NCBI GenBank assembly: GCA_016783245.1 | Contig: JADHWY010000001.1 | Coordinates: 38,007 to 102,006 of the forward strand | Reading direction: 5' to 3' | Length of the DNA stretch: 64,000 nt | Source of the DNA: Dehalococcoidales bacterium | GTDB lineage: Bacteria; Chloroflexota; Dehalococcoidia; Dehalococcoidales; BS750m-G39 | Part shown: positions 27,943 to 43,317 of the stretch, one piece after another | How the letters are laid out: every line of letters starts with the position of its first letter | How positions within the stretch are numbered: the stretch's first letter is position 1 | Program-made: the position numbers and the translations under genes | Notes under the pieces: generated by a model | What the model saw: only the letters and a program-made list of their open reading frames with translations | What the model was told of the DNA's origin: nothing | The model's database searches: none

Positions 27943-29247
27943 TTGAAGAGAAAAGTATCTTCAAAATTAATCATTATTGTTAGCCTAGTAGCAGCGCTGG
28001 CAATACTGGTACCCGTGATAAGTGGCTGCTTCCCTGGGAGACCAGCACCAGAGGTGAAACCAATCAAGATAGCCGTTACTACTGGTGTCACCGGTGGGTT
28101 TTCAGCGCATGCAGTTCACCATGTCAGGTCGGCACAAATGGTGGTGGAAGAAGCTAATGCCCGTGGCGGAGTGTTAGGAAGGCCTGTGGAACTTGTCATA
28201 TTTGACGTTGGTGACTGCTCAGCCGGTGAGCTAATCGCTGCTCGTGATGCGCTGAAGGCAGCTGATGTGGATGTAAACTTCACTATGTGGTGGATCTCCG
28301 CAATAGCTAGTCAGTATATGCTTGAAACTGGTATTCCCATGATTCAGCAGGGATGGGTATCAGAGGACTGGGATGCGGCGTGGGAGGTCAAGGACCAGTA
28401 CCCAAACTTTCTTTTTATGAATCGGGATGAGTTGGGCTATGGTGCACCTTATTTCCAGGCGCTGACTAATCCTGAGCTGATTCCTTGGGAATTCCCAAAC
28501 AAAAAGGCAGCGATACTGACGGCTGAGGGTGAGTATAACGCAAGGATAGCAGCGTCGTGGCGAGGGGAGGCGGAAAAGGCTGGTTGGGAAATAATCCTCG
28601 AAGAGACTCATCCATGGTTTACCACAGACTATAGCCCTCAAATGGCGAGGATAAGGGAGGAAGAGCCGGCCATCATCTTTTTCAACAGCAGCATCGCGGT
28701 AGAACCAATAGCCGCCTTTAGCGACTTTTTGGAAGACCCGACAAACTCGCTTTTTGCCCTTATATGGGTTATACAACAGCCTGAATTCAAAGATACGTTC
28801 GGTACAGACGCCAATGGAGTTATAGGTACTCTACCAGGTGTCGACTTTATGGCTACTGAATACAAAGGGACGAATCCACAATACATGACGCATTATGAGA
28901 AAGGCAAAGCTTTTAACGAAGCGTATATTGCGAGGTACGGTGAGACGGCAGGGATAGCAGCACACATTGCGCAGGATGCATTCTGGGCATGGGCAGAAGC
29001 TGTAGAGCGAGTTGGTGATTCTCGCGATTTTGATGGAGTCATAAAAGATATGGAGGAACATTACTACGTTGGGATAACTGGACGGTACGGCTTCGACCCT
29101 GAGATCAAGGCTGGTCATTATGGACCCGAGAACATACCAATCACCTACTATCAAATGCAGGACGGAGAGGTTCAGGTTATGGGATTAGGAGCGGGCAGGG
29201 ACGTGGAAATAATTACGCCTTTCCAATTGCCCCATTGGATAGAGTAA
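27943..29247 (+). CDS. ABC transporter substrate-binding lipoprotein, branched-chain amino acid/amide (LIV, Peripla_BP_6-like) family
   Basis: TTG start after SD AAAGGAGG. Signal peptide with lipobox ISGC. About 400-aa type I periplasmic binding fold. Followed by LivHMGF-type genes. Confidence 0.8.
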   Translation: MKRKVSSKLIIIVSLVAALAILVPVISGCFPGRPAPEVKPIKIAVTTGVTGGFSAHAVHHVRSAQMVVEEANARGGVLGRPVELVIFDVGDCSAGELIAARDALKAADVDVNFTMWWISAIASQYMLETGIPMIQQGWVSEDWDAAWEVKDQYPNFLFMNRDELGYGAPYFQALTNPELIPWEFPNKKAAILTAEGEYNARIAASWRGEAEKAGWEIILEETHPWFTTDYSPQMARIREEEPAIIFFNSSIAVEPIAAFSDFLEDPTNSLFALIWVIQQPEFKDTFGTDANGVIGTLPGVDFMATEYKGTNPQYMTHYEKGKAFNEAYIARYGETAGIAAHIAQDAFWAWAEAVERVGDSRDFDGVIKDMEEHYYVGITGRYGFDPEIKAGHYGPENIPITYYQMQDGEVQVMGLGAGRDVEIITPFQLPHWIE

Positions 29248-29413
29248 TAGAGATAACAAGAGAGGCGATTTTTTAGGTTACGCAGCGGACAAATAAGGGC
29301 AGCGTGGAGTATTGGCATAGTGGGAGGGGATAGGTAATCATATTGGTACTTATCCCCTTTCACTAAGCAAAACTGCCGAAATGGGCTTAGTTTGCGGAAC
29401 CGGCGGAGTCATC

Positions 29414-30286
29414 ATGACTGTTAGTATGGCAGGGAATTTATTGATAGCCGGAGTTGCAGTTGGTGCTGTGTATGCCATCATGGGTTTAGGCTTAAGTTAT
29501 GTTTATGGCATAACAAAAATATTTAATTACACTCAGGGGGCGTTCTTCACCTGGGCAGCCTATATTGCCTGGGTGCTATCATCAGGATTTTTTCACTTAA
29601 ATTATGCCGCCGCGGTTATTATTACCGTTGCAACTATGTTCCTGATTGGTGTTGGCTACGAAAAAGCCGTTATACGTCCCCTGCGTCGTTTCCCAGAGTG
29701 GCAGATGACTGCGCTTATTGTTACTTTAGCCTCGGCTATGGCATTAGACAACCTGGCTTTGGCAGTCTTTGGCTATGCGCCGAAAAGAATCCCCCATTTA
29801 ATCAAGGGAAATTTCGTCTGGGGTGATTTCCTAATAACCAGGCATGAGGTGGTAACATTGGTAGCCGCCCTAGCTATAATGTTTCTCCTTATCCTTTTCT
29901 TGAAGAAGGTCAGGGAGGGTATGGCAATGCAAGGGATGGCCCAAGAGCCGGTAGGCGCACGGATTGTGGGCATACCGATAGACAAGATGTATAGCTATTC
30001 CTTTGGTATAGCAACAGTCCTGGCTGGAATTAGTGCTATATTGCTTGCCCCAAAGATCTTAATATATCCTACTGTAGGCTGGGTGGTTTTTATAAAGGCG
30101 TTTGTAGTCATGGTATTTGGTGGGGTGGGCAGTATTAAAGGAACTGTTATCGCTGCCTTTATTTTGGCAACGGTAGAGGTTTTTGTTACATATTATATCG
30201 GCGGCATTTGGGGAATGCCTATCTTCATTGCTGTGTTGGCGATTATGTTAATAATTAGACCGAGAGGGCTGTTTGGGACATGGTAG
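29414..30286 (+). CDS. branched-chain amino acid ABC transporter permease (LivH-like)
   Basis: Polytopic. AVYAIMGLGLSYVYG, GMAMQGMAQEP..ARIVGI, GGVGSIKG motifs. Start moved to the ATG at 29414 (SD GGCGGAG). The track start 29381 is possible. Confidence 0.85.
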   Translation: MTVSMAGNLLIAGVAVGAVYAIMGLGLSYVYGITKIFNYTQGAFFTWAAYIAWVLSSGFFHLNYAAAVIITVATMFLIGVGYEKAVIRPLRRFPEWQMTALIVTLASAMALDNLALAVFGYAPKRIPHLIKGNFVWGDFLITRHEVVTLVAALAIMFLLILFLKKVREGMAMQGMAQEPVGARIVGIPIDKMYSYSFGIATVLAGISAILLAPKILIYPTVGWVVFIKAFVVMVFGGVGSIKGTVIAAFILATVEVFVTYYIGGIWGMPIFIAVLAIMLIIRPRGLFGTW

Positions 30287-31275
30287 TTAATAAGATAGGT
30301 AGGAAAAACGCTTTGTTACTCGGTGGTGTGTTGGTTTTGGGACTTCTCCCAATTGCTTTACAAGGGAATGCACGCATTTTGAATGTTTTAATCGCAGCCC
30401 TTATGTGGGGAGTACTAGCTTCAGCATGGGACCTCTGCATGGGATATGCTAGGGTATTCTCTTTTGGACATCTTGCGTTTTTCACTATCGGTGCTTACAC
30501 AGCAGGCCTGACGGCACGGCAACTGGGGATACCGCCATTGGCTGCAATCCCACTCGGAGGTGTTACAGCAGCTATATTCGGTTTGCTAATTGGTTTGCTC
30601 TGCCTTAGACTTCGTGGTGTATATATAGCTATGGTTACCTTCGGCCTGCATATGGTCCTACAGACTGTTATTATCTGGGGACGTGATATTACTGGCGGGA
30701 AGACTGGTGTAACCGGCTTTGCTCCTCTGCAAATAGGGCAATATATCTTTTCCCCTAGTTATCCATTTTTCAGTTATTATATTGCTCTCGGTATATTTAT
30801 CCTGTTACTCTTTATAATTTATAGGATTATCAATTCCCCGATTGGGCTAGCATTTGTGGCTCTCCGCGATTCGGAGCCCTATGCTAAGAGCCTTGGCGTA
30901 AATGAGTATAAGTATAAGCTTATTGTGTTTGGTATCTCCGCCTTCATAGCTGGCTTAATCGGTGCTGTTTATATTCATTTCTATGGTATAATTTCTCCGG
31001 TCACGTTAGACATTCCTATTTTTCTTATGGTTCTAATCATGTTCATGCTTGGAGGATTAGGCAGGTTCCCTGGAGCAGTGATTGGCGCTTTTGTCATCAC
31101 TTTTGTCACTGAGGCTTTGCGACCACTACTACTCTGGCGCTTTGTTGCGTTGGGAGCGATAGTAGTTGCAGTGACGGTTTTTATCCCTGGGGGGCTAATG
31201 TCAATCCCTGAGAGGGTTAGACCCTTTATCCGGCGAGCTTTTGGAAGAAGGCACGTTGAAGAAGAGGTGTCGTAA
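30280..31275 (+). CDS. branched-chain amino acid ABC transporter permease (LivM-like)
   Basis: Polytopic. FSFGHLAFFTIGAY, ALRDSEPYAKSLGVN, GGLGRFPGAVIGA. Confidence 0.85.
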   Translation: MVVNKIGRKNALLLGGVLVLGLLPIALQGNARILNVLIAALMWGVLASAWDLCMGYARVFSFGHLAFFTIGAYTAGLTARQLGIPPLAAIPLGGVTAAIFGLLIGLLCLRLRGVYIAMVTFGLHMVLQTVIIWGRDITGGKTGVTGFAPLQIGQYIFSPSYPFFSYYIALGIFILLLFIIYRIINSPIGLAFVALRDSEPYAKSLGVNEYKYKLIVFGISAFIAGLIGAVYIHFYGIISPVTLDIPIFLMVLIMFMLGGLGRFPGAVIGAFVITFVTEALRPLLLWRFVALGAIVVAVTVFIPGGLMSIPERVRPFIRRAFGRRHVEEEVS

Positions 31276-31306
31276 GGGTAGAGTATGTAAGTAGGCAGAC
31301 CAAAAT

Positions 31307-32017
31307 ATGAAAATTCTTCAGGCTAAAGAAGTAACTAAGCGCTTCGGCGAATTAGCTGCCGTTAAAGACTTAACTTTTGAGGTAGAAAAGGGTGAAATCT
31401 TTGGTATAGCCGGACCAAATGGTTCCGGGAAGACCACTCTATTCAACCTTATTTCGGGGGTTTATTCTGGTTCAGGAGACATCATTTTTGAGGGTGAGAA
31501 CATTCATGGGCTTAGACCATTTCAAGTCTGCCACAAGGGAGTGGCACGGACATTTCAAATCCCCATCCTTTTCCCATCGATTACTGTATACGACAATATA
31601 AGGGTTGGCGCCCATTTTGGAGTGTTGAAAGGGAAAAATGAGAAGGAACGTATCAACGAAGTAATAGACTTCGTCGGTTTACGGGGTAGAGAAAATATTG
31701 TCGCCGAACATGTGGACCTTTTTGATAAAAGGCTAACCATGCTGGCGGGGGCGCTAGCTACACAGCCCAGGCTATTACTCGTTGATGAACCGATAGCCGG
31801 CTTAAGCCCGAGGGAGGTCAGAGATTCGGTGGCCCTGTTCCAAAAAATCAACAGAGAGCTAGGGATAACGATAATAATTATCGAGCATTTGATGAAGGTC
31901 CTGGTAGAGGTCTCCCATAGACTTATGATTATCAATAATGGGGAGAAAATCTGTATTGGCCCACCTGAGGAGGTTACTCAGAATAAGGAGGTAATAGAGG
32001 TTTACCTGGGAGGTTGA
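31307..32017 (+). CDS. ABC transporter ATP-binding protein (LivG-like)
   Basis: Walker A GPNGSGKTT, signature-region equivalent, Walker B LLLVDEPIAG. Confidence 0.9.
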   Translation: MKILQAKEVTKRFGELAAVKDLTFEVEKGEIFGIAGPNGSGKTTLFNLISGVYSGSGDIIFEGENIHGLRPFQVCHKGVARTFQIPILFPSITVYDNIRVGAHFGVLKGKNEKERINEVIDFVGLRGRENIVAEHVDLFDKRLTMLAGALATQPRLLLVDEPIAGLSPREVRDSVALFQKINRELGITIIIIEHLMKVLVEVSHRLMIINNGEKICIGPPEEVTQNKEVIEVYLGG

Positions 32018-32724
32018 TTATGCTTGAAGTAGATAGGATAGATACTTACTACGGCGAATTTCAGGCATTAAAGGAGGTTTCGGTCAACGTTAAGGAGGGT
32101 GAACTGGTGGTCGTTTTTGGACCCAACGGTCATGGTAAGAGCACTCTACTCAAGACTATCTGTGGCTTACTCACTCCAGCCTCGGGCTATGTAAAGTTTG
32201 ATGGCGAGCAAATAAACGGGATGCCCACCCAAAAAATTGTCGGGATGGGCATGGTTTATATCGCTGAGGACAGGCATCTCTTTCCTGATATGACAGTGCT
32301 AGAAAACCTGAAGTTGGGTGCCTATAGCCCCCATGCTCGACCCAAAGAAGCTGAGAACCTTGATTATGTTTTTCAGTTGTTCCCCAGGCTAAAGGATTGG
32401 AGAAAAAGAAATGCCTCGACACTGAGTGGTGGGGAGGCACGAATGTTGGCCATTGGGCGAGGACTAATGTCTGCGGCTAGGTTTCTGGCAATAGATGAGC
32501 CATCGCTGGGACTAGCGCCTATGGTTAGACGTGATGTGTTTAGAACGATTAAGGAAATTAATGAGACGGGCATTAGTGTGCTCATGGTTGAGCAGAGCGT
32601 TGTCCAAATTTCAGAGATGGCGGATAGAACCTACCTTATGGAAGATGGCAGGATAGTATTTGAAGGTAGCAAGGATGAAGCCTTGAAGGACGAGCATGTA
32701 AAGGAAGTATTTTTAGGTATATGA
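32014..32724 (+). CDS. ABC transporter ATP-binding protein (LivF-like)
   Basis: Walker A GPNGHGKST, signature LSGGEARML, Walker B FLAIDEPSLGL. 4-nt overlap with the previous gene. Confidence 0.9.
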   Translation: MIMLEVDRIDTYYGEFQALKEVSVNVKEGELVVVFGPNGHGKSTLLKTICGLLTPASGYVKFDGEQINGMPTQKIVGMGMVYIAEDRHLFPDMTVLENLKLGAYSPHARPKEAENLDYVFQLFPRLKDWRKRNASTLSGGEARMLAIGRGLMSAARFLAIDEPSLGLAPMVRRDVFRTIKEINETGISVLMVEQSVVQISEMADRTYLMEDGRIVFEGSKDEALKDEHVKEVFLGI

Positions 32725-32901
32725 AAGTTGGTGGTCTATCCTTGTTTCTGAGTGAGCAGACGTGAAAAGGTGAAACATTGAGATGTCGAGTATACCCAGT
32801 GTAGTAGCAGTTGGGACAATGGTCTGTAAATCCCCAAGGTTCAACGGGAATTCCTAAATCCCTGTGCCATTTAATTGGACGTTCCAAAAAAGAGGAGAAA
32901 A

Positions 32902-34218
32902 ATGATCGATCCAAAAGTGAAAGAGGTTGTTCTGGCAGTAGTCGATAGCTTAAAGGATGACCTTGTCCAATTGGTTTGTGATACAGTCAAGATTCCCAGC
33001 GTGAACCCCACGTTTCCGGGAGTAGTGTATGAAGAGGCTCTTGGTGGGGAGACCAAGGTAGCCGAATTCCTCAAGCCGCTTCTGGAAGATATTGGCCTCA
33101 AGACAGACATGTGGGAAAAAGAAAAGGGCCGCGCCAACCTGGTAGGAGTTTATAAGGGGACCGGGGATGGAAAATCCCTGATTTTTAATGGCCACACGGA
33201 CGTCGTCCCTCCGGGACCAGAAGAGGAGTGGACCAAGGCTGAACCCTGGAGCGGCAAAATCGCGGATGGAAAGATTTGGGGTCGCGGCGCCTGTGATATG
33301 AAGGGTGGGGATGTAGCCGCCATCATCGCACTAAAGGCTCTTCTTAATGCTGGGTATAAGCCAAAAGGCGATGTGATTATTGAGGATGTGGTTGGGGAAG
33401 AGATGATGAACACCGAGGCAGGCACTGGGGCGACCATCGAGCGCGGCTACAAAGCAGACGCGGCAATTGTTGTAGAGCCATCTGGCCCCCCTTACCGACT
33501 GGGGCTTATTCCAGCCTCACCCGGCGTCTTCTATATGGTCGTTACCATCAAGGGCAAGGCTGTCCACGCCTCAATGCGGGATGAATTAATCCGGCCTGGG
33601 GGCGGTGGGGCAAAGATAGGTGTTAGCTCAATCGATAAAGCGATGATTATATACCAAGGCCTCAGGAAACTAGAGGAGGAATGGGGGCAAACTAAGAGCC
33701 ACCCGATGTTCACCCGCCCTGGTCATTTCACCCTTCATCCCGGCGTAATCACCGGTGGTCCCAGTGGTGCTTTCGTCATTTCCAATGAAAGCAAAATTGA
33801 ATATGCAATCTGGCATGCTCCTTCCGATTCTGAAGAACAGGTCAAGAAAGAGGTAGAAGAACAGATCTCTCTGTTTGCGCAAACGGACCCCTGGCTGAGG
33901 GAACATCCGCCAAAGATAGAATGGCTGCTGTGGTGGCCACCCTACGATGTTCCCGTGGATGCCCCTATCTGCAAAGCTGTTGCTACAGCTTATGAGTCGG
34001 CAATGGAGGAACCAGTTAAGTATTACGGCTTCGCCGCAGTTGATGACGCGGCTTTCCTGAACAGGGCAGGAATCCCCGCCATTACTATCGGACCAGGTGA
34101 TCTCCGTGTTGCCCATGCCGCCAATGAGTATGTCGAGATCGCTGAACTTGTTGATGCGGCAAAGATTTACGCCTTGTCTATCGTGGAGTGGTGTGGGGTT
34201 CAACGGAGTAGAAAGTGA
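32902..34218 (+). CDS. M20 family metallo-amidohydrolase (ArgE/DapE/ACY1/CPG2-like)
   Basis: FNGHTDVVPPG, GRGACDMKGG, VVGEE, GPGDLRVAHAANEY. Start set at ATG 32902 after SD AGAGGAG. The track TTG is at 32875. Confidence 0.85.
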   Translation: MIDPKVKEVVLAVVDSLKDDLVQLVCDTVKIPSVNPTFPGVVYEEALGGETKVAEFLKPLLEDIGLKTDMWEKEKGRANLVGVYKGTGDGKSLIFNGHTDVVPPGPEEEWTKAEPWSGKIADGKIWGRGACDMKGGDVAAIIALKALLNAGYKPKGDVIIEDVVGEEMMNTEAGTGATIERGYKADAAIVVEPSGPPYRLGLIPASPGVFYMVVTIKGKAVHASMRDELIRPGGGGAKIGVSSIDKAMIIYQGLRKLEEEWGQTKSHPMFTRPGHFTLHPGVITGGPSGAFVISNESKIEYAIWHAPSDSEEQVKKEVEEQISLFAQTDPWLREHPPKIEWLLWWPPYDVPVDAPICKAVATAYESAMEEPVKYYGFAAVDDAAFLNRAGIPAITIGPGDLRVAHAANEYVEIAELVDAAKIYALSIVEWCGVQRSRK

Positions 34219-34323: not shown

Positions 34324-35685
34324 TTACCTTGCTAGCATTACATAAAGGCTATTGACGTTGGTGCCGGTTTGCCCGGTTATGATTGCATCGCTCAATTTAC
34401 TCAGGATGGTAGAGGCATCGTGCGACAACAAGCTCTCAAGTAAATCCAATCCCTTTTCTTTCGCTCGCTCTGTTGTAGAGCTGTCAATGATGCCTCCGGC
34501 TAGCTCGGTTGGTCCGTCTGTGCCATCGGTATCAATAGCAGCGATGACCACCCCACTCACCCCAGCGAGTTGCAATGCCGCGCTAAGCACAAATTCCTGG
34601 TTCGGGCCTCCTTTGCCACAGTTACCACTTATGGTAACTGTGGTCTCGCCACCAGCAATAACCACGCAGGGTGTTGTGAGTGGTCTGCCGTAAGTCTTAA
34701 TTTCTCTAGCCATACCAGTAAATATGTGGCTTACTTCCCTGCTTTCTCCTTCGAAAGTGGTAGTTAGTATCATCGGGGCGAACCCTAGCTCTTTTGCCCT
34801 ATTACTCGCCGCTTCACAAACGACCTTACTCTTCACTATAACAAATGTATGCACCGGCATACCATCGAAGTTCCTGGGGTTTTCCATTTCGGGAGTGGCA
34901 TTTAATAAGTATTCTAAAGCAGATTTCGGGATCTTTCCCACTAGGTCATACTTCTTTAATACCCGAATGGCATCCTCAAAGGTCGAGGTATCGGGCACAG
35001 TCAAATCGGTTATACAATCTAGAGGGTCGCCGGTTACATCAGAGACAGTTAAATTAATAAGCTCAGCAGGAAATATGGAGAGGGCGAGTTTGCCCCCCTT
35101 AATTTGGGAGAGGTGTTTTCTAACCGCATTTATTTCCCTGATGGTGGCTCCACTATAGATAAGCAGTTCATGTACCCGTCTCTTCTCTTCAATAGTAATG
35201 CCAGGGGCAGGAAACGGCGCGAGGGCTGAACTTCCTCCGGTTATGGCACAAAAAACAAGGTCCCCCTTCTGTGCCGTCTCCGCCAATGATTTCATCTCCT
35301 TAGCTGCCATAAATCCCCGTTCATCGGGTAGCGGATGCGATGCCTCTCTCATCCGCACCCTTTCTAAAGTGCCTTCCTGTCCTTCCTTCAAAATAACAAC
35401 ACCATCGGAAATCCGTTCTCCCAGAATTTCTTCAAGGGCTTTGGCTATTGGGAAAGTAGCTTTGCCTGCCCCGAAGAGATAAATTTTCCCTCTCTTAGAG
35501 AGATCATAGCGTAAGTTATCAACGTTGAGGATGTTCCCATGCAAATGGACCAGGTTTATGGTTGCTGTATAGGGGTCTGCTGCTAGCAACGCGTGCTCAA
35601 TAATATCAATTACAGTTCCCCTTCCTGTAACCTCACCGTGGGAAGTAAGTTCTTCTTTATTCTTAATATACAAAGAATCGTCCAC
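34324..35685 (-). CDS. glycerate 2-kinase / hydroxypyruvate reductase-like protein (DUF4147 + MOFRL)
   Basis: FGAGKATFPIAKALEE in the N-domain. IAGGETTVTISG..GKGGPNQEF and DTDGTDGPT in the MOFRL domain. Confidence 0.8.
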   Translation of the reverse strand: MDDSLYIKNKEELTSHGEVTGRGTVIDIIEHALLAADPYTATINLVHLHGNILNVDNLRYDLSKRGKIYLFGAGKATFPIAKALEEILGERISDGVVILKEGQEGTLERVRMREASHPLPDERGFMAAKEMKSLAETAQKGDLVFCAITGGSSALAPFPAPGITIEEKRRVHELLIYSGATIREINAVRKHLSQIKGGKLALSIFPAELINLTVSDVTGDPLDCITDLTVPDTSTFEDAIRVLKKYDLVGKIPKSALEYLLNATPEMENPRNFDGMPVHTFVIVKSKVVCEAASNRAKELGFAPMILTTTFEGESREVSHIFTGMAREIKTYGRPLTTPCVVIAGGETTVTISGNCGKGGPNQEFVLSAALQLAGVSGVVIAAIDTDGTDGPTELAGGIIDSSTTERAKEKGLDLLESLLSHDASTILSKLSDAIITGQTGTNVNSLYVMLAR

Positions 35686-35715: not shown

Positions 35716-36993
35716 TTAGAATGGTTGCCTGAACTTCCTACCAGCATATCTGGCAGAGCTTCCGAGTTCGTCCTCTATCCGTAGCAATTGATTATACTTG
35801 CTGGTTCTCTCGCTGCGCACCGGTGCCCCGGTTTTTATCTGTCCAGCATTTAATCCGACCACGCAATCAGCAATCATACTATCCTCAGTCTCACCGGAGC
35901 GCTCGGAAACTACGACCCCGTACCCGCTTCTAAAAGCCAGCCAGGCTGCATCAAGTGCCTCACTAAATGTTCCGACCTGATTATACTTCCAGAGCAGTGC
36001 ATTGGCCGCGCCCATTTCTATCCCCTTATTCAAACGTTCGGTGTGGGTGACAAATAAGTCATCCCCAACTATCTGGATATCCAGCTCTTTTGTCAGCCGG
36101 GCAAACCCTTCAAAATCGTCCTCCTGCAAAGGGTCCTCTATGGAGGCTATAGAATATGTTGACATCAAATCCTTATAAAGGCCTATCATATCATCGGTAG
36201 TCAGTTGCTCTCCTTCAATGATATACATCCCCGTCTTCTTGTCATAAAGGTGGGTTGCTGCCACGTCGAGCGCATACACTATCTTATCTTCCCATCCTAC
36301 CTCGGCCACAGCTTGTGTCAGGACTTCAAACGGCTCTCTTATCTTGGTCATAGGTGGGACATATCCACCTTCATCTCCTACGTTGAGAGCCATCTTCCCA
36401 TATTTTTCTAGTAATAACTTTCCCACTATAGTGTTAATCTCAACAGTAATTTGGAGAGCCTGAGAAAAGCTTTCGGCACCAACCGGCATTATGATGAATT
36501 CCTGGAAGTCAAGGTCGTTGGATGCCAGCTTTCCCCCGTTTATCAGATTCATCATGGGCACTGGTAAGATGCAGGCGTTAGTATTGATGTACTGGTAAAT
36601 CGGTATCCCTAGACTAGCTGAGGCTGCTTTCACCGCGGCTAGAGATACTCCCAGTATTGCATTAGCACCCAGCTTTGTCTTCTGCTTAGTGCCATCCAGA
36701 CTTATCAACAGCTCATCTATCTTTCTCTGTTCCGTTACCTTTATTCCCACAATCTCACCAGCGATAATCTCATTCACATTACGTACTGCCTTACGCACAC
36801 CAAGCCCGTTGTATCTCGAGTCACCATCCCGAAGCTCGTATGCTTCGTAAGCACCCGTGCTACGCCCGCACGGAACATCCGCCCGTCCACGCAGCATGCC
36901 ATCCACCCACATGTCAACCTGAACTGTGGGTGTTCCCCTGCAGTCTATGATTTCCCTAGCCTTCGCTCTAGTTATTTTTAACTGTTCTACCAT
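35716..36993 (-). CDS. enolase-family paralog with non-canonical active site
   Basis: Full-length enolase fold. Conserved: SIEDP, GDDL, KYNQVG, RSGETED, QIKTG. GGxHA is replaced by GGKLA (L156), and SHRSGETED by SERSGETED (E364). Confidence 0.85.
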   Translation of the reverse strand: MVEQLKITRAKAREIIDCRGTPTVQVDMWVDGMLRGRADVPCGRSTGAYEAYELRDGDSRYNGLGVRKAVRNVNEIIAGEIVGIKVTEQRKIDELLISLDGTKQKTKLGANAILGVSLAAVKAASASLGIPIYQYINTNACILPVPMMNLINGGKLASNDLDFQEFIIMPVGAESFSQALQITVEINTIVGKLLLEKYGKMALNVGDEGGYVPPMTKIREPFEVLTQAVAEVGWEDKIVYALDVAATHLYDKKTGMYIIEGEQLTTDDMIGLYKDLMSTYSIASIEDPLQEDDFEGFARLTKELDIQIVGDDLFVTHTERLNKGIEMGAANALLWKYNQVGTFSEALDAAWLAFRSGYGVVVSERSGETEDSMIADCVVGLNAGQIKTGAPVRSERTSKYNQLLRIEDELGSSARYAGRKFRQPF

Positions 36994-37361
36994 GTTCTGC
37001 TCTCCGCATTTAAAAATTTCACTTTAAAGACGCAGTGACATATGCTTAAACTTCAAGTCAAAACTAGTCAGTCATTTCCTCCTTGGCTTCGCGGTAAAGC
37101 TCAATAAACTCCTTATAGCTTTTTTGGTATTTGACCCTCCTTTCACTTGCGTATTTTAGCAATGCGTTAGTAGACTGTCAATCGCATTCATTGATATTAA
37201 ATATCAACCCAGATATGCATTTTTAAATAAGCTACGCAGATAGATTGAAGGGGCTCTATCCGTTCAGGACAACCTTTCCCCTCAAAGAGGAGAGAGACAG
37301 GGAATATGGTTGAGTTGATAGAAACCCCACTAGAACTCGTTTAGCAGCTTATCCCCCTGAC

Positions 37362-37674: not shown

Positions 37675-37704
37675 TTGGCAAGTAACTATTTTATCCTTTA
37701 TAAT
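37675..37704 (+). promoter_or_regulatory. putative promoter of the SDR gene (TTGGCA-18-TATAAT)
   Basis: Hexamers at 37675-37680 and 37699-37704, about 60 nt upstream of ATG 37763. Confidence 0.45.
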
Positions 37705-37762
37705 CAATAGGTAACCGTGGCTGGTGCTGGCCGTTAAAAAACAAAAGGAGGTGCTGTTAAAG

Positions 37763-38542
37763 ATGGGAAGACTGGATGGCAAGGTTGCTATGATAACTGG
37801 GGCTGCTTCAGGTATTGGGAGGGGACACGCTGAGCTGTTTGCCAAAGAAGGGGCTAAGGTGGTAATTACCACCAGAAAGAAGGTAGCTGAGGGGACGGCG
37901 TTAGCGGAGAGTATCAAAAAACAAGGTGGAGAAGCTGTCTTCATTAGGCTTGATACAACCAGCGAGGATGACTGGAAAAGGGTGCTCGACGAAATTACCA
38001 AAAAATATGGCAAACTGAACATCCTGGTGAATAACGCTGGCGTTTCACTGGCAAAAACAATCGAGGAAACCTCCCTTCAGGAATGGAATTGGCTGATGAA
38101 TATAAACGCCACCGGGGTTTTCCTGGGCTGCAAATATGCCATTGAAGTTATGAAGAAGAACGGCGAACCGTGTTCCATAATAAATATCTCATCCGTTGAT
38201 GCCATGGTGGGTGAGGCTGGGTTACCTGCCTATTGTGCCTCCAAAGGTGCGGTGTGGTCATTGACCAAAGCAGTGGCACTATCCTGCGCCGAAGCAGGGT
38301 ATAACATTCGGGTCAATTCAGTACATCCCGGTCTTATTCATACTGAGCTTACCGATAAAGAGGCTCAAGACTATGGAATTACGTTCGGGCAGTATGAGAA
38401 ACTATTTACGGCAGCAATTCCACTTGGGCACATTGGTGAACCAATCGATATTGCTTATATCAGTTTATACCTTGCTTCTGATGAATCCAGTTGGGTTACC
38501 GGATCACAGTTTGTTGTTGACGGAGGTTATACCACAAAATAA
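37763..38542 (+). CDS. short-chain dehydrogenase/reductase (classical SDR)
   Basis: TGAASGIG cofactor motif, NNAG, catalytic YCASKGAV. Start set at ATG 37763 after SD AAAGGAGG. The track start is 37724. Confidence 0.9.
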   Translation: MGRLDGKVAMITGAASGIGRGHAELFAKEGAKVVITTRKKVAEGTALAESIKKQGGEAVFIRLDTTSEDDWKRVLDEITKKYGKLNILVNNAGVSLAKTIEETSLQEWNWLMNINATGVFLGCKYAIEVMKKNGEPCSIINISSVDAMVGEAGLPAYCASKGAVWSLTKAVALSCAEAGYNIRVNSVHPGLIHTELTDKEAQDYGITFGQYEKLFTAAIPLGHIGEPIDIAYISLYLASDESSWVTGSQFVVDGGYTTK

Positions 38543-38613
38543 ACGGCACAATAAGGTTAATAATAGCGGCGGGCGAATACTGAACTGGCATTGGCAGCGC
38601 TATTGTCGTTTCT

Positions 38614-38680
38614 CAGGTTAATTTACCACCCATTGTCAAGTTAATGTTCCACCCTTTTTCTCAAGTTAATTGACCACCCT
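38614..38680 (+). repeat. three 19-bp direct repeats TCARGTTAAT-NNN-CCACCC spaced 23 and 25 bp
   Basis: Copies at 38614-38632 (tcaggttaatttaccaccc), 38637-38655 (tcaagttaatgttccaccc) and 38662-38680 (tcaagttaattgaccaccc). A partial fourth copy (agttaccacc) lies about 35 nt downstream. Confidence 0.8.
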
Positions 38681-39151
38681 GTGTACACCACTGAGCATAG
38701 TAGCACACAGTTACCACCTCCTTCTCAAGGGCTTTGTCGGGGCTCTGAAAAAGTACATTGTTATAAGATGATCGAAGGGGAAGCTGAAAAACTAAAGAAA
38801 CTAGTGAGCTCTATGGGAGAGGTACCAGGGCCTCACTCCGCTACCTTTTGAGGTAATAGTCGTGTTTTGGCAGGATCTGCCAAGGGAAGCCACTTACTGC
38901 TGTAAAACTAGGCGAGATTACTCTTGAACAAATTAGATGTGGGTTATCATAAATCGAAAGATAAAGGGAGCTTGGGGTACAAGCTGGAGTATGAGGTTGG
39001 CAGTGTGATTTTTATGTCAAGGTTTTAGTGCCCGAGAGGAAGTTATGTTCAGACGCGATGTGACAATGGCTGATATCTATATGGCGAGGAAGAGGACTTC
39101 ATCTATAGTCAAAAGGACCTCTTTGGCCAGTTCTCCTTCGTTAACGGAACA

Positions 39152-39218
39152 CGTTGGTGTGCCCCGGCAATCAATGATTTCTCTAGCTTTTATGTCAGGT
39201 AATTTTTAATTGCCCCAT
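39152..39218 (-). pseudogene. frameshifted 5' fragment of a second enolase-paralog gene
   Basis: Minus strand ATGGGGCAATTAAAAATTACC...GCTAGAGAAATCATTGATTGCCGGGGCACACCAACG aligns with the 5' end of the 36993 gene (MVEQLKIT..KAREIIDCRGTPT). 30/36 identity in the best block. One extra nt gives in-frame stops, and homology ends after GTPT. Confidence 0.75.
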
Positions 39219-39234
39219 CAGATAATTTTCTCCC

Positions 39235-40458
39235 TTACTGGGATATGGCTAAAGCGATGGCAGCGCTGCCGATAGCACACTGCACTAGTGATTCAAGGCT
39301 GACTCGTTCTTTAGGAGTATGCACCAGCCCTTCTTCTCCCGGCCCATAACCAATAGTAGGGATACCCCTTACTACCGCAGTATGACTCCCATCAGTAGCA
39401 AAGTGCCAGTAGGCTCGCTCTGGTTTCTGCCCCACTTCACCTAAAGCAGCATATGCACGAGCCGCTTTAGGGTGATCCGGCTCAATAAGCCAGGGAAGTT
39501 GCAGCTTTCGCGCCCGTGTTTTCCTGCCGGTGTAGCTAACCTCATCAACTTCACGCATTCGAACATAGCCGCGAAATTGTGGGTCCTCTTTTTCAATATC
39601 TTTGAGGATTGTCTCTATTTGAGCTAATATCTGTTCCACGGTCTCGGTAGGAGCAAAGCGTCTGTCTAGGCAAACGGTACACCTATCAGGTATGACACTT
39701 AGACGCCCTGGGCTGCAGGATATGATAGTGAGACTAATGGTTGACTTGCCAAATACCCGGTGAGTTGGCAGGTTATCATTAAGAGTTTGAACCTTATCCA
39801 GCACAGGCAACATCTTGTATACAGCATTTATGCCCAGCGCTGGAGCGCTACCATGACTGGTCCGACCGACAGTAGTTACTTCTAACTCCATGCGTCCTTT
39901 ATGGCCCAGCACAAACTTGAGGTTAGAAGGTTCTCCCAATACTACAAAGTCAACCTTTATCCCTTTCTGGATAAAAGTTGTATCACAGAGAAATGCCATA
40001 CCTACGCACTCAGCTGGTTCTTCTTGGACAACGCAGGAAATAATGATATCCCCTCGGTGGGACAGTCCGAGCTTTTTTATAATATAGGCGGCGTATACCT
40101 GGGAGGCGATAGCCCCTTTCATATCGCAGGTGCCACGACCATGAAGATAACCATCAAAAATGACCCCTTCGTAAGGGTCATAATCCCATTGGTCCAATTG
40201 GCCTGGGTCTACGTGGTCCATGTGGCCATTGAGCATTATGTTCTCGCCTTGGCCGTTGCCCTTAATTATTCCCACCACATTTCCCATGGCATCGGTGAAC
40301 ACCTCGTCATACTTCAGCTTTCTCATCTCACGCACAATGATTTCGGCTACCTTTTCCTCCTCACCGCTGAGGCTGGGAGTTTGTATTAACTTTTGCGCAA
40401 ATCCAGCTACATCATCGGCTATCTGAGAGCATTCTTCCTTCAAAAGCTGAAATGACAT
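39235..40458 (-). CDS. M20 family peptidase, YgeY-like
   Basis: LNGHMDHVDPG, WDYDPYEG, GRGTCDMKGA, VQEE, SHGSAP, GYGPGEE..HTPKE. The layout parallels E. coli YgeY from memory. Start set at ATG 40458 after SD AAAGGAG. Confidence 0.85.
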   Translation of the reverse strand: MSFQLLKEECSQIADDVAGFAQKLIQTPSLSGEEEKVAEIIVREMRKLKYDEVFTDAMGNVVGIIKGNGQGENIMLNGHMDHVDPGQLDQWDYDPYEGVIFDGYLHGRGTCDMKGAIASQVYAAYIIKKLGLSHRGDIIISCVVQEEPAECVGMAFLCDTTFIQKGIKVDFVVLGEPSNLKFVLGHKGRMELEVTTVGRTSHGSAPALGINAVYKMLPVLDKVQTLNDNLPTHRVFGKSTISLTIISCSPGRLSVIPDRCTVCLDRRFAPTETVEQILAQIETILKDIEKEDPQFRGYVRMREVDEVSYTGRKTRARKLQLPWLIEPDHPKAARAYAALGEVGQKPERAYWHFATDGSHTAVVRGIPTIGYGPGEEGLVHTPKERVSLESLVQCAIGSAAIALAISQ

Positions 40459-40685
40459 AGCGTCTCCTTTCGGTGGAATGGGCATTCCTATCCTACACTG
40501 GGGTTAATTAGCTGTCAAGTGTAACGGCGACTTAAAGGAATTGGGGACTGCACCCCCTCTTCTGGGGCAAGATGGCTATAAGGGTGTCTAACCGGTCATT
40601 AATCCATCCTGCCACTAACAACTCCAGATTGTTCACTATTGCACACTTGCTTGCATTGTTCACAGTTTGCTATCGCGGGTACTCG

Positions 40686-41357
40686 CTAGATTATTTCAAC
40701 CCAGAGATGGTTATACCATCGCCGATGCTCTTCACCAGCAACCTTTCGATACTTCGCTGTGGTATTGAAGCTAGCGTGCCCCAAATGCTCCTGAAGCAAC
40801 CTAAGTGCGTCACCTGAATCATCCAGTTTCATGGCGTGTACACTAAAGGCGTCCCTGAGCCGATGAGGACTGACACCTCTCACACTGCCGGTTTCTGGAT
40901 TCACCAAGTTCGGAAGCCCAGCCCTTCTAGCACAATCTCTCACTATTTGCCAGGCCCGATGTCGGTTGATGTCAAAGATAAGATTCGTCCTTGCTTCTGT
41001 TTCAATGAAGTCAGCCAACATATTCAGCGTGTCCCTATCTAAGGGAAGTGTTCTCACACGGCGATGCTCCATTTGTCGCGTTGCAGTGGCACTTATCTCC
41101 CCGCCACACTCAGGACAGAAGCGATGCCTCTTACCTAACCTTGCCCGGCACTTCAGACATGACAATTTGGCTCGTCTCTTAAGATGCAGGATTGTGATGG
41201 TACCCCTGGCAAAGTCAACATCTCCGACATAGATGGCCAAAGCCTCTGAGATGCGGCAGGCCAAACGGAAAAGAAGCCTGATAAGCAGCTCATCACGGAG
41301 GCAAGTGGCGACTCGTTCCATTGATTCTACATCTTCAAGCTCCAGATAGGTTTTCAT
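40686..41357 (-). CDS. compact tyrosine recombinase (catalytic domain only) with internal zinc-ribbon insertion
   Basis: R (ACRISEAL), HRLRDAF (HxxR), HLGHASFNTTAKY (H..Y). CLKC...CPEC is inserted after the first beta-hairpin. No SAM-like N-domain. Confidence 0.75.
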   Translation of the reverse strand: MKTYLELEDVESMERVATCLRDELLIRLLFRLACRISEALAIYVGDVDFARGTITILHLKRRAKLSCLKCRARLGKRHRFCPECGGEISATATRQMEHRRVRTLPLDRDTLNMLADFIETEARTNLIFDINRHRAWQIVRDCARRAGLPNLVNPETGSVRGVSPHRLRDAFSVHAMKLDDSGDALRLLQEHLGHASFNTTAKYRKVAGEEHRRWYNHLWVEII

Positions 41358-41581
41358 GGCATTAAGTTCTTTCTCTCGACTTTTCCTAAGTCATCCTTAC
41401 GACCAGATTCCAGCACTTGTCGGAGAGTAAAACCTGCTGACTTCAATTGCTGATGAATATAGGCATCAGAGCAGCCAAGCTTCCGAGCAGCCCGCATAAC
41501 GTAGCCGGTCCGCTTGATCGCTCTGATTATCTCTTCCATCGGTATATCTAGTCTAGGTCGCCCACGCAGTGTTTTTTCCAT
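41354..41581 (-). CDS. small HTH DNA-binding protein
   Basis: 75 aa. The segment YVMRAARKLGCSDAYIHQQLK looks like a helix-turn-helix. 4-nt overlap with the downstream recombinase. Confidence 0.55.
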   Translation of the reverse strand: MEKTLRGRPRLDIPMEEIIRAIKRTGYVMRAARKLGCSDAYIHQQLKSAGFTLRQVLESGRKDDLGKVERKNLMP

Positions 41582-41778
41582 CGCCCCTAACCGTCTTACA
41601 AAATCTAATAAAATATGCCACCGTTAATTCTTGACCTAGGATATTCCCCGCTGTGATTCTCTGCAGAATTTCCATCTCAAACGCTCTGGCCGCTTTGTCT
41701 TTTCCCTTATTTTGGGATAAAATCTAAGCGGAGAACAGAACATATCACAACATTACATTTAGCTTTGGGATTATTGAT

Positions 41779-42234
41779 ATGGCACGGATTTGCGAAAATT
41801 GCGGACATGCATTGGGTAGATATAATCCTGGGAAGAACTGTTATGCCTGCCAAGAAAAACGACGTGAGGGGATAGTAAATATGAGTGAAAGCCCAAATTA
41901 CGACGTGGGTAATCTAGCATATCTTCTAGATTTGAGCGAGGCGCAGGTAAAAAGGAATGAGAACGATGGCAAGATACCGCCGCGTATTCCTGGTATACGG
42001 AAGTATCTTTGGCCCAAAAAGGTTATTGATTACTGGAGAGAATCGGGGTTTCGTCCTTATTGGGAAGATAGCGAGGTGGCCGAAGCAGTATTATATGGCA
42101 CTACGCATGGCTGGAATCTAGTCAGCATGACATTCGGCGGTCGCAGTACTGAGCACCCCGTAGAAAGATACCGAGAAGCCAAGAAGTTCGATGAAGAAGT
42201 CCCTAGAAACGACTTTAAATGGTTTACACCTTAA
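41779..42234 (+). CDS. zinc-ribbon + excisionase-family HTH protein
   Basis: N-terminal CENCG...CYAC. The central segment LAYLLDLSEAQVKRNENDGKIPP...KYLWPKKVIDYW resembles the Xis/MerR-type HTH_17 pattern. Confidence 0.55.
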   Translation: MARICENCGHALGRYNPGKNCYACQEKRREGIVNMSESPNYDVGNLAYLLDLSEAQVKRNENDGKIPPRIPGIRKYLWPKKVIDYWRESGFRPYWEDSEVAEAVLYGTTHGWNLVSMTFGGRSTEHPVERYREAKKFDEEVPRNDFKWFTP

Positions 42235-43153: not shown

Positions 43154-43317
43154 TCTGTTCTCCTCGCGCTGACAGCTTACAACACGCTGAGGGTAGGGGC
43201 TACGACATTGCACTACATTAGCAACGTTTTCGGGTAAAGCAGCGGCTCTTTCGGCAGAAATCCCCGGTTTTTCGGCCTGGGATTCGAGGGCAGTGTAGGC
43301 GTGGCTCGGGCGTGGTA

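Follow-up and report, generated by a model that had tools for sequence, protein, structure and literature searches.

Enolase paralogs with an Arg/Glu active-site signature and an obligate MOFRL kinase partner: a possible phosphorylate-then-eliminate catabolic module

The window analyzed here, a 64-kb (64,000-nucleotide) stretch of DNA from a Dehalococcoidales bacterium, encodes an R/L/E-type non-canonical enolase paralog. This protein belongs to a large family in which the active site is rewired and a MOFRL kinase is the obligate partner. The paralog may be the lyase half of a mobile two-gene catabolic module that would phosphorylate and then beta-eliminate, where the substrate would be a 3-substituted analogue of 2-phosphoglycerate (2-PG). 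We put the probability of this reading at roughly 0.48, slightly below one half. The features of the locus are collected in Table 1.

Table 1. Features at and around the enolase-like gene, with positions counted from the first nucleotide of the window.
Feature	Position	Strand	Basis or remark
Liv-type ABC transporter (binding protein, 2 permeases, 2 ATPases) and ArgE/DapE-family M20 deacylase, convergent on the kinase	27943..34218	+	Pfam, NCBIfam
DUF4147 + MOFRL kinase (class II glycerate-2-kinase family), 30 nt 3' of the enolase-like gene	34324..35685	-	Pfam
Enolase-family gene, R/L/E-type non-canonical paralog	35716..36993	-	425 aa ORF, ATG start
Glu364 codon GAG, yeast His373 position	35902..35904	-	Alignment and yeast mapping
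Trp335 codon TGG, yeast Leu343 position, just before catalytic base Lys336 (= Lys345)	35989..35991	-	
Leu156 codon CTG, yeast His159 position	36526..36528	-	Alignment and yeast mapping
Arg44 codon CGT, yeast Ala38 position, adjoining metal-II ligand Ser45 (= Ser39)	36862..36864	-	
Promoter-like site TTGACA-17-TAAAAT with TG, 11/12, ~160 nt upstream of the start	37153..37181	-	Consensus match only
SDR oxidoreductase, divergent from the enolase-like gene, pathway membership uncertain	37724..38542	+	Pfam and NCBIfam
Relic of enolase-like 5' end (KLPDIKAREIIDCRGTPT), immediately following the YgeY-like M20 gene	39140..39205	-	tblastn, translation, DNA alignment
YgeY-like M20 hydrolase, pathway membership uncertain	39235..40485	-	Pfam; NF009555 388.7 bits vs cutoff 321

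The enolase-like ATG is preceded by GGAG about 8 nt 5' of it. The product matched both Pfam domains, Enolase_N and Enolase_C (4.6e-108 and 6.8e-50), and its TIGR01060 score of 533.6 bits exceeds the curated equivalog cutoff of 300, which is why annotation pipelines name it phosphopyruvate hydratase. The alignment to the enolase of M. jannaschii (PDB 2pa6; E 7e-158) is gap-free around three motifs, which read, query versus 2pa6, GGK[L/H]A, VS[E/H]RSGETED, and P[C/S]G[R/A]STG. The AF2 model, which has a pLDDT of 91.7 and its lowest values in the active-site loops, was superposed on 2pa6 (MJ0232) using Foldseek with a TM of 0.96 and an rmsd of 1.6 Å. Both the sequence and the model predict a full-length two-domain enolase fold, and the end-to-end alignment with canonical enolase that was claimed in the original prediction is borne out by the two Pfam domains, the 2pa6 match, and the superposition.

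The active-site residues were mapped using yeast ENO1, a reference 100% identical to PDB 1EBG/1ONE. Leu156 corresponds to the His159 of the literature (sequential 157) and Glu364 to His373 (sequential 370), so that in place of the two active-site histidines, the query has Leu and Glu. The original prediction had placed both replacements at exactly the codons given in Table 1, and structure-based realignment on the model (the superposition described above) did not restore the histidines. Misalignment is ruled out by the gapless motifs, the verified yeast mapping, and the superposition. To become a His codon, either codon would need two nucleotide changes, which excludes a single sequencing error, and the identical protein is encoded on eight independent contigs; together with the intact ORF and the presence of the signature in 362 clusters, these facts rule out a sequencing error or a pseudogene.

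The family was sampled as at least 362 homolog clusters at 90% identity, which are 53–100% identical to the query and come from five phyla, with members in Dehalococcoidia, Bathyarchaeia, Desulfobacter, Actinomycetota, and Proteobacteria. Glu (Asp in two) is found at the yeast His373 position in 362 of 362 clusters, and Arg is found at the yeast Ala38 position in every member with a residue in that column (one is gapped, n = 362), where the canonical representatives have Ala or Thr. In a broader set consisting of the 150 nearest 50%-identity representatives and the query, the His373 position is His in 117 of 151 sequences. The His159 position divides the family: it is Leu in all 242 members of the Dehalococcoidia and proteobacterial types, and His159 is retained in all 120 actinobacterial relatives. 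The loss of both histidines, which had been taken as the core signature, must therefore be replaced by the pair Ala38Arg and His373Glu, the change of His159 to Leu being subclade-specific. Similarly, the reported change of PSGASTG to PCGRSTG is real, but only its Ala38-to-Arg part is invariant, while the position of Ser36 (Cys in the query) varies among S, C, A, and Q. The sequence pattern across the family indicates that the Arg44/Glu364 signature is beyond chance.

Residue 335, next to the catalytic base, is Trp in 98–100% of the members from Dehalococcoidia and Actinomycetota and Phe in 117 of 120 proteobacterial members, where canonical enolases have I, L, or V. Further family-specific residues are Cys18 (yeast Ser13), Asp39, Asn187, Tyr240, His248, and Val/Ile392. 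Apart from the R/E pair, roughly ten clade-specific substitutions are located within or beside the lid loops and barrel ends. The catalytic apparatus itself is retained. The metal ligands D243, E286, D311, and S45 (Asp246, Glu295, Asp320, and Ser39 in yeast) are 99–100% conserved in the family, and K336, E208, E165, K387, R365, and S366 (Lys345, Glu211, Glu168, Lys396, Arg374, and Ser375) are at least 98% conserved; all the residues that the original prediction had listed as retained (D243, E286, D311, E165, E208, K336, K387, R365, and S366) are present in the query. In a neighbor-joining tree, the R/E family is monophyletic and lies inside a radiation of other non-canonical enolase-like clades near the archaeal-type enolases. 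A literature search found no description of the R/E enolase-like family.

The MOFRL kinase gene adjoins the enolase-like gene in 30 of 30 distinct family loci and lies beside a canonical enolase in none of 13 loci, and the kinase tree parallels the enolase-like tree; the kinase is the obligate partner of the family. The kinase of the window matched over its full length PH0495 (1x3l; 348 bits, ~40% identity), which we take to be a characterized glycerate kinase forming 2-PG, and TM1585 (2b8n; 35% identity), which was deposited as a putative glycerate kinase. 2-PG is the product of MOFRL kinases (PMC2063504). The kinase of the window is 36–45% identical to the kinases of other family subclades, and thus no closer to them than to PH0495 and TM1585, roughly speaking; its scores against the lineage-specific NCBIfam glycerate-2-kinase equivalogs are 248.9 (cutoff 550) and 172.7 (cutoff 670). 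A second, more divergent enolase-like clade (locus L041; F159, G373, SGRAGGTIDD) likewise has a MOFRL kinase as its partner, which suggests that the kinase/enolase-like pair has diversified in specificity.

Members of the family are carried on megaplasmids of the cultured bacteria Salmonella enterica sv India (WP_000097706.1) and Paraburkholderia caribensis (WP_060610894.1), both of which have a chromosomal eno; the partner kinases are WP_023245799.1 and WP_060610896.1, respectively. In a search of plasmid proteins (361 records), most matches were canonical enolase paralogs; two matches exceeded the canonical level of ~50% identity, and these top two, the ones inspected, were of the R/L/E type with the kinase alongside. 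In Salmonella, an MFS acid transporter, a GntR regulator, and a bona fide canonical pyruvate kinase are all encoded within the cluster itself. None of 5426 complete E. coli genomes carries this cluster, and near-identical DNA was found among 72,556 plasmids only in the Salmonella record itself. The plasmid copies, and the transporter and pyruvate kinase of the Salmonella cluster, indicate that the family is accessory. Its distribution across phyla is patchy, which looks like horizontal transfer.

Elsewhere, the enolase-like gene is often under a GntR/FCD regulator and beside transporters of the Pot, Liv, NMT1, and Na:Ala types. The neighborhoods are rich in amine- and sulfonate-handling genes: they include hydrolases (M20, PTER-like, Amidohydro_3, and agmatinase-like), class-III aminotransferases, an amine oxidase, a DadA-like dehydrogenase with RidA, and an Xsc equivalog. 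The neighborhoods also often contain 2-Hacid_dh genes of the hydroxypyruvate-reductase type and sugar-acid dehydratases. All-versus-all clustering of the neighbors and targeted tblastn found no universal third partner gene. The set of PTER-like, SDR, and HpaB-like genes is conserved within Dehalococcoidia only, and that of GntR-FCD, Pot-type ABC, and class-III aminotransferase genes within Actinomycetota only. Thus, no gene other than the kinase is a universal neighbor, and the context indicates no specific alternative substrate.

In the proposed module, the MOFRL kinase would phosphorylate, at the expense of ATP, the 2-hydroxyl group of a 2-hydroxy acid resembling D-glycerate. The paralog would then act with the unchanged two-Mg2+ machinery (metal ligands D243, E286, and D311 together with S45), and Q164, K387, R365, and S366 would clamp the carboxylate and the phosphate. 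Lys336 would take the C2 proton and the C3 substituent would be expelled with the assistance of Glu208 and Glu165, giving PEP or a PEP analogue, which pyruvate kinase would convert to a 2-oxo acid so that ATP is regained. The lid and the C3/leaving-group corner may be remodelled by Arg44, Glu364, the aromatic residue 335, Asn187, Tyr240, and His248, to which Leu156 would add in the subclade of the query. We infer that the paralog is catalytic, that it works in the direction described, and that its substrate is not 2-PG; an altered substrate or chemistry is a plausible reading and the one we prefer.

Candidate substrates are 3-amino analogues of the isoserine type, 3-sulfo analogues (phosphosulfolactate, which would give PEP and sulfite), and a C4 acid, whose charged group may be bound by the new Arg/Glu pair. 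Ammonia could be the leaving group if the substrate is 2-phospho-isoserine or a zwitterion of the 3-hydroxyaspartate type held by Arg/Glu; with phosphosulfolactate it could be sulfite, in the reverse of the ComA reaction. A phosphite-eliminating (C-P lyase-like) role was rejected because phosphite is a poor leaving group. The further claim that the family is the first catabolic neofunctionalization in the enolase family proper, namely, a PEP-forming beta-eliminase with a leaving group other than water, appears to us somewhat unlikely. One structural feature speaks against a 3-substituted substrate: Trp/Phe335 narrows the C3 pocket rather than widening it.

The substrate may instead be 2-PG itself. 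The paralog would then be a genuine enolase isozyme for a glycerate funnel, in which the MOFRL kinase converts D-glycerate to 2-PG and the paralog converts 2-PG to PEP; this is doubtful, but the convergence of many neighborhoods on glycerate and the likeness of the kinase make authentic 2-PG a serious candidate. With its full-length matches to PH0495 and TM1585, the kinase looks like an ordinary representative of the one MOFRL function that has been characterized. GhrA-like/2-Hacid_dh genes occur in clusters of three phyla, clusters rich in dehydratases of the UxaA/GarD and IlvD/Edd types lie upstream in Dehalococcoidia, the pyruvate kinase of the Salmonella cluster is canonical, and the heterogeneity of the neighborhoods suggests a hub metabolite. 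All carboxylate-, phosphate-, and metal-binding residues and the acid and base are retained, and the H373N variant of yeast enolase reportedly keeps roughly 10% of the activity. The lid residue Arg44 would contact the phosphate in place of His159, and Glu364 would take over the hydrogen bonding of His373; as a charge-neutral pair, the two could form an epistatically locked alternative lid latch with the substrate unchanged. Such an active site might be advantageous by resisting tartronate-semialdehyde phosphate or other inhibitors from hydroxypyruvate/tartronate-semialdehyde pathways.

However, His159 and His373 are present in all canonical enolases sampled and their mutation is strongly deleterious, and the R/E pair is held in 362 of 362 family members with no reversion, accompanied by the ten or so extra substitutions around the lid loops and barrel ends. 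The module would also be redundant in Salmonella and Paraburkholderia; in Salmonella, eno, pyk, and glycerate kinases are already present, which would make a plain glycerate route redundant there. Moreover, canonical enolases are common on plasmids, yet the kinase lies alongside only the two inspected R/L/E ones.

It is much less probable that the gene is the sole housekeeping enolase, an archaeal-type gene having displaced the bacterial one in the Dehalococcoidales lineage. The passing of the TIGR01060 cutoff fits this explanation, and tblastn found no second enolase in the 64-kb window other than the 66-nt relic. In a scan across genomes for a canonical eno accompanying the paralog, no genome was matched twice. 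The original prediction had set the gene apart from pgk-apgM, which was mistaken in that both are only ~7 kb away, beyond an integrase/tRNA-Arg junction; this proximity also fits a housekeeping role. Two integrase genes and the tRNA-Arg gene, which one integrase abuts, nevertheless intervene; a search for an att-like repeat of the tRNA end found none, and the GC shift in the region is slight. The relic, a truncated second copy, indicates a rearranging accessory region and marks a former M20-to-enolase-like arrangement, and the order M20, enolase-like gene, kinase is intact in a Bathyarchaeota MAG locus (L011). The SDR of the window is only ~33% identical to that conserved beside the module in other Dehalococcoidia, and promoter-like sites in the region are not more numerous than the shuffled expectation.

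A housekeeping enolase would be expected outside inducible catabolic or accessory loci, whereas the relatives are plasmid-borne, in bacteria with a chromosomal eno, and lie in regulated operons, always with the kinase and usually with a GntR/LysR regulator and transporters. Together with the patchy distribution, these facts uphold at the family level the earlier view that the paralog is not a housekeeping enolase. The relative in Ca. Mnemosynella (L/H/W/E type) lies outside the archaeal ribosomal/RNA-polymerase cluster where housekeeping eno is typically located, and its context is therefore uninformative.

The absence of two residues considered essential, and the fact that the lowest pLDDT values fall in the active-site loops, might suggest an inactive or moonlighting protein, such as a regulator or a scaffold for the kinase. 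However, conservation of at least 98% at eleven catalytic or ligand residues in five phyla is unexpected without catalysis, and we consider this explanation very improbable. Least probable of all is a PhpH-like biosynthetic homolog acting on a phosphate-modified glycerate: the changes on the phosphate side (His159, Ala38), the sub-threshold best match of the GntR regulators to a phosphonate-utilization regulator model, and alkaline phosphatase/PhoX genes nearby in Actinomycetota are outweighed by the lack of PEP mutase and other phosphonate-biosynthesis genes in the window and in the gene tables of the related loci, the ATP-dependent kinase partner, and a catabolic context with transporters and regulators.

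Members of the enolase subgroup of the superfamily are generally assumed to share one function, and annotation pipelines label all of them as phosphopyruvate hydratase. The present family, with at least 362 clusters in five phyla, and at least one further divergent clade with the same kinase partnership bear on this practice. A substrate other than 2-PG would imply a new phosphorylate-then-eliminate catabolic route, and many metagenomic reconstructions of glycolysis that count the non-glycolytic gene as eno would need correcting. With pyruvate kinase, such a neofunctionalized enzyme would provide an ATP-neutral deamination or desulfonation of hydroxy acids, operating in soil Actinomycetota, subsurface Dehalococcoidia, and some Proteobacteria. 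With 2-PG as the substrate, the two "essential" histidines would prove replaceable by an Arg/Glu solution, which would be informative on the mechanism of enolase and for inhibitor design. Since the family is present in cultured S. enterica and P. caribensis, either outcome is directly testable.

Compared with canonical enolase (EC 4.2.1.11), whose closest solved structure is MJ0232 (PDB 2PA6; 59% identity structurally aligned), the paralog has the same two-domain fold and length and no active-site indels. It shares the metal ligands, the Lys345 base, the Glu211/Glu168 acid pair, Lys396, Gln167, Arg374/Ser375, and Ser39. The family differs in His373 to Glu, Ala38 to Arg, Leu343 to Trp/Phe, Ser13 to Cys, Asn187, Tyr240, and His248, and the subclade of the query also in His159 to Leu; the family is, moreover, always in an operon with the MOFRL kinase, and is accessory and plasmid-borne in some hosts. 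PhpH, the enolase homolog of phosphinothricin-tripeptide biosynthesis that forms carboxyphosphonoenolpyruvate, is a precedent for a member of the enolase family proper acting on a 2-PG analogue with the same dehydration chemistry. PhpH is biosynthetic and belongs to a phosphonate cluster with PEP mutase and no MOFRL kinase partner, whereas the enolase-like loci have no phosphonate-cluster genes. The MR/MLE acid-sugar dehydratases and the Fe-S/UxaA-type dehydratases share the net beta-elimination from a 2-hydroxy acid to a 2-oxo acid; the proposed module would instead proceed through a phosphorylated intermediate and an enol phosphate in an ATP-neutral manner, and the query protein falls in the enolase subgroup, not in those of MR/MLE. 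The closest pathway likeness is to the glycerate branch of the non-phosphorylative Entner-Doudoroff, serine, and glucarate routes, in which a MOFRL glycerate 2-kinase, enolase, and pyruvate kinase act in order. This order of enzyme families is found here (with pyruvate kinase in the Salmonella cluster), as are nearby hydroxypyruvate-reductase-like and sugar-acid dehydratase genes. However, the enolase of the known branch is the ordinary His/His enzyme of the cell, unlinked to the kinase gene, whereas here the kinase scores below the curated glycerate-2-kinase equivalog cutoffs and a dedicated paralog with a modified active site is genetically locked to it.

The predicted gene was confirmed as a complete open reading frame (see the table below), and its full-length relationship with enolase was borne out: Pfam Enolase_N and Enolase_C cover the protein end to end, and the NCBIfam enolase equivalog TIGR01060 scores 533.6 bits against a cutoff of 300. 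The closest solved structure is the enolase MJ0232 of Methanocaldococcus jannaschii (PDB 2pa6, E 7e-158), and the alignment to it is gap-free around three active-site motifs, which read INGGK-L-ASNDLDFQEF, VVVS-E-RSGETED and VP-C-G-R-STG here versus INGGK-H-AGNDLDLQEF, VVVS-H-RSGETED and VP-S-G-A-STG in 2pa6. With yeast ENO1 as the numbering reference (sequence 100% identical to PDB 1EBG/1ONE), Leu156 corresponds to His159 of the literature, Glu364 to His373, Arg44 to Ala38, Ser45 to Ser39, Trp335 to Leu343 and Lys336 to Lys345. The codons originally assigned to the two changed histidine positions were exact (Leu156, CTG, 36528-36526; Glu364, GAG, 35904-35902), and each is two substitutions away from any His codon. 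The lid is remodelled at Arg44, Leu156, Ser158 and Asp160, and the C3 corner at Glu364 and Trp/Phe335. An AlphaFold2 model based on 30 family sequences reached a pLDDT of 91.7 and superposed on 2pa6 with a TM of 0.96 and an rmsd of 1.6 Å, its lowest-confidence blocks including the changed lid and active-site loops (residues 41-50, 151-160, 201-210 and 361-370). The superposition rules out the recovery of the histidines by structure-based realignment.

Coordinates of the enolase-like gene, its kinase partner and surrounding features in the window
Feature	Position	Strand	Remarks
DUF4147 + MOFRL kinase (class II glycerate 2-kinase family)	34324..35685	-	Pfam; 30 nt downstream of enolase-like gene
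Enolase-like ORF	35716..36993	-	425 aa; ATG start; GGAG ~8 nt upstream
Relic of enolase-like 5' end	39140-39205	-	66 nt; KLPDIKAREIIDCRGTPT, with the family-specific Cys
Phage-type integrase gene 1	40686-41357	-	
Phage-type integrase gene 2	42224-43345	-	Abuts or overlaps tRNA-Arg(tct)
tRNA-Arg(tct)	43318-43395	-	
pgk	44162-45352		
apgM	45380-46597		

Among the 120 database clusters closest to the protein (65-100% identity; Dehalococcoidia, Chloroflexota and one Bathyarchaeota), Arg44 and Leu156 occur in all, Glu364 in all except two with Asp, and Trp335 in all except one with Leu. When an actinobacterial relative was the query, Arg44, His156, Glu364 and Trp335 were present in 120/120 clusters, and a search seeded with a Salmonella plasmid copy gave Leu156 and Glu364 in 120/120, Arg44 in 119 (the remaining one gapped) and Phe335 in 117. 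These counts indicate that Ala38Arg and His373Glu form the core signature of the family; nearly every member also has an aromatic residue ahead of the catalytic lysine. His159Leu arose later, in the Dehalococcoidia/Bathyarchaeia and Desulfobacter/proteobacterial branches. The loss of both histidines thus holds for the window protein but not as a family signature, because the actinobacterial set keeps His156. Likewise, PSGASTG was correctly read as PCGRSTG, where residue 42 is variable (S, C or A among the closest 120 clusters) and Arg44 is the near-invariant change.

The predicted retention of the metal ligands and acid/base residues was substantiated, as Ser39, Gln167, Glu168, Glu211, Asp246, Glu295, Asp320, Lys345, Arg374, Ser375 and Lys396 (yeast numbers) are at least 98% conserved across 362 sequences. 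The enolase fold, with its full two-metal, Lys-base and Glu-acid apparatus, is under strong purifying selection. Family-specific residues include Cys18 (yeast Ser13, 100% Ser in canonical sequences), Asn187 (canonical Tyr/Phe), Tyr240 (canonical Leu/Ile), Asp39, Ser/Ala158, His248 and Val/Ile392. In a neighbor-joining tree without bootstrap, the family is monophyletic and lies inside a group of other non-canonical enolase-like clades beside the archaeal-type enolases. In a set of 151 sequences, consisting of the query and its 150 nearest 50%-identity representatives (P0121-P0270), His is absent at the His373 position in 34, or in 33/150 without the query; the near-invariance originally cited for functional enolases holds for canonical enolases but not for the enolase family at large. 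One group among these 33 has SARSGETED, with His replaced by Ala. Many further non-canonical "enolases" seem to exist beyond this Arg/Glu family.

The neighboring kinase aligns full-length with PH0495 (1x3l, 348 bits) and TM1585 (2b8n); the product of the MOFRL kinases characterised to date is 2-phosphoglycerate (2-PG) (PMC2063504). A kinase homolog adjoins the enolase-like gene, mostly immediately downstream, in 30/30 distinct family loci, which span Dehalococcoidales, Chloroflexia, Bathyarchaeia, Desulfobacter, Actinomycetota, Gaiellales, Salmonella, Paraburkholderia and contigs of 3-6 Mb, whereas 0/13 canonical (His/His) enolase loci recovered by that scan have one within the flanking sequence covered. 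The kinase tree shows the same three main subclades as the enolase tree, which indicates that the pair was inherited and transferred as a unit. The gene for an ATP-dependent 2-hydroxy-acid kinase is a fixed genetic partner of the enolase-like gene; no third universal partner was found among the neighbors of the family loci. In two long-read actinobacterial MAGs the kinase is split into two ORFs (L029, 11284-12665; L053, 11277-12697), either by a frameshift assembly error or by genuine decay. In a Ca. Korobacteraceae MAG (L041, 2900-5625; representative P0145), a MOFRL kinase and an MR/MLE-type enolase-superfamily enzyme precede a member of a second, much more divergent enolase-like clade, in which Phe replaces His159, Gly replaces His373 and SGRAGGTIDD stands for SHRSGETED. 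The association of a MOFRL kinase with an enolase-like gene is thus seen more than once, with different active sites.

The other neighbors depend on the lineage. In Dehalococcoidia, a PTER-like amidohydrolase follows the kinase (L001, 12800-13855, and 13 other loci), with an SDR and an HpaB-family gene convergent on the amidohydrolase, and upstream there are often large clusters of sugar-acid dehydratase genes. Among PDB entries the amidohydrolase is nearest to 9efa, "phosphotriesterase-related protein" (282 bits); in mammals, PTER hydrolyses N-acetyltaurine. The amidohydrolase gene is missing from the window, where two M20 deacylases take its place and flank the module together with a Liv-type ABC transporter and an SDR. 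In Actinomycetota, a GntR-FCD regulator precedes the module, which lies among two or three class-III aminotransferases, a class I/II aminotransferase, an amine oxidase and a Pot/PhnS-type ABC transporter, with a 2-hydroxyacid dehydrogenase in some loci and alkaline phosphatase or PhoX genes nearby. The remaining loci contain an agmatinase-like ureohydrolase, LarA-type isomerases, an NMT1-type ABC transporter, an Xsc equivalog, Amidohydro_3 hydrolases and a Na:Ala symporter. The LarA homologs (nickel-pincer 2-hydroxyacid racemases/isomerases) adjoin the module in two distant lineages (L001/L016, 7202-8464; L055/L056, 3695-7755, the latter with LarB/LarC-like cofactor genes), which hints at a chiral 2-hydroxy acid needing epimerisation as the pathway substrate. 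On a 5.8-Mb contig (L057, 12752-15904), the pair has as immediate neighbors the Xsc equivalog (sulfoacetaldehyde acetyltransferase; 725 bits, cutoff 676) and a class-III aminotransferase, so that at least one module is linked to sulfonate catabolism.

The relic immediately follows the YgeY-like M20 gene and has no continuing ORF. An intact M20, enolase-like and kinase order occurs in a Bathyarchaeota MAG, and the relic suggests a past rearrangement that broke such an operon. The predicted separation from pgk and apgM is correct in that two integrase genes and tRNA-Arg intervene, but the distance is only ~7 kb. The integrase/tRNA-Arg region (40686-43395) is a possible genomic-island junction, but a search for an att-like repeat was negative and GC content changes only slightly. 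A 23-nt motif (TTSTCAAGTTAATKNWCCACCCW) is present in three adjacent copies (38610-38680, +; 78-100% identity) in the non-coding stretch that separates the SDR gene from the relic, and a weaker fourth copy (37675-37697) overlaps the promoter-like site of the SDR gene; the copies may serve as operators or in recombination.

Among 72,556 plasmids, only two protein matches exceed ~50% identity, the canonical level, and both have Arg, Leu and Glu at the three positions. The megaplasmid of Salmonella enterica sv India SA20085604 has the order enolase-like, MFS acid transporter (ACS-family), MOFRL kinase, D-Ala-D-Ala ligase, GntR, pyruvate kinase and GNAT, and its pyruvate kinase is bona fide (TIGR01064, 525 bits, cutoff 306). 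This cluster (L050; NZ_CP022016.1, 463635-471609) is self-contained with IS elements on its flanks, and none of 5426 complete E. coli genomes contains it. Plasmid 2 of Paraburkholderia caribensis MWAP64 has GntR, enolase-like, kinase, Lrp, ABC transporter, DadA-like FAD dehydrogenase, RidA, GhrA-like reductase, class II aldolase and GNAT.

The substrate would be the kinase product, a 2-phospho-2-hydroxy acid, from which Lys336 would abstract H-2 before departure of the C3 substituent, giving an enol phosphate from which pyruvate kinase could regenerate ATP. We favor, at a probability of just under one half, a lyase specific for a 2-PG analogue, because the non-canonical residues are strictly fixed at first-shell positions, about ten more substitutions are clade-specific, the kinase accompanies non-canonical clades only, including that of L041, a glycerate route would be redundant in Salmonella, and amine- and sulfonate-handling neighbors are abundant. 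Three analogues are proposed speculatively. For 2-phospho-isoserine, the leaving group would be ammonia; the combination of Glu with an aromatic residue is typical of ammonium-binding sites. For phosphosulfolactate, suggested by the Xsc, TauA-like and PTER-like neighbors, sulfite would leave and Arg would be the sulfonate ligand. A C4 zwitterion, e.g., phosphorylated 3-hydroxyaspartate, is considered because its extra NH3+/COO- would fit the new Glu/Arg pair with net charge unchanged.

A 2-PG isozyme serving a glycerate funnel is less probable but a serious competitor. The kinase looks ordinary, being as close to PH0495 and TM1585 as to the kinases of other subclades; GhrA-like and sugar-acid genes occur among the neighbors; the Salmonella pyruvate kinase is canonical; and the charge-neutral Arg44/Glu364 pair could be an epistatically locked alternative latch. 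The original suggestion of an altered substrate or chemistry thus gains from the fixed substitutions and the kinase linkage, but is weakened by the ordinary-looking kinase and the canonical pyruvate kinase. That the protein is the sole housekeeping enolase of its host is improbable, even though the 64-kb window contains no other enolase except the relic; Salmonella enterica and P. caribensis each carry a chromosomal eno, so that the plasmid member there is a paralog by definition. An inactive or moonlighting protein is still less credible, given at least 98% conservation of the catalytic residues. The family occurs in Salmonella and Paraburkholderia strains in culture, where it is open to direct testing.

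Full-text literature searches turned up no paper describing the family. A PhpH-like biosynthetic role is the least probable alternative; the PhpH-type homolog, to our knowledge the sole precedent for another substrate inside the enolase family proper, belongs with phosphonate genes, none of which occur at the family loci. The window protein belongs to the enolase family by sequence and fold, and its acid-base chemistry would be enolase-like, but it lacks the two defining histidines and is therefore not filed as EC 4.2.1.11. Its nearest counterpart is found at the end of the non-phosphorylative Entner-Doudoroff, serine and glucarate pathways, where a MOFRL glycerate kinase, enolase and pyruvate kinase act in succession; enolase there is the unmodified housekeeping enzyme with a gene unlinked to that of the kinase, whereas here a modified paralog is linked to it.
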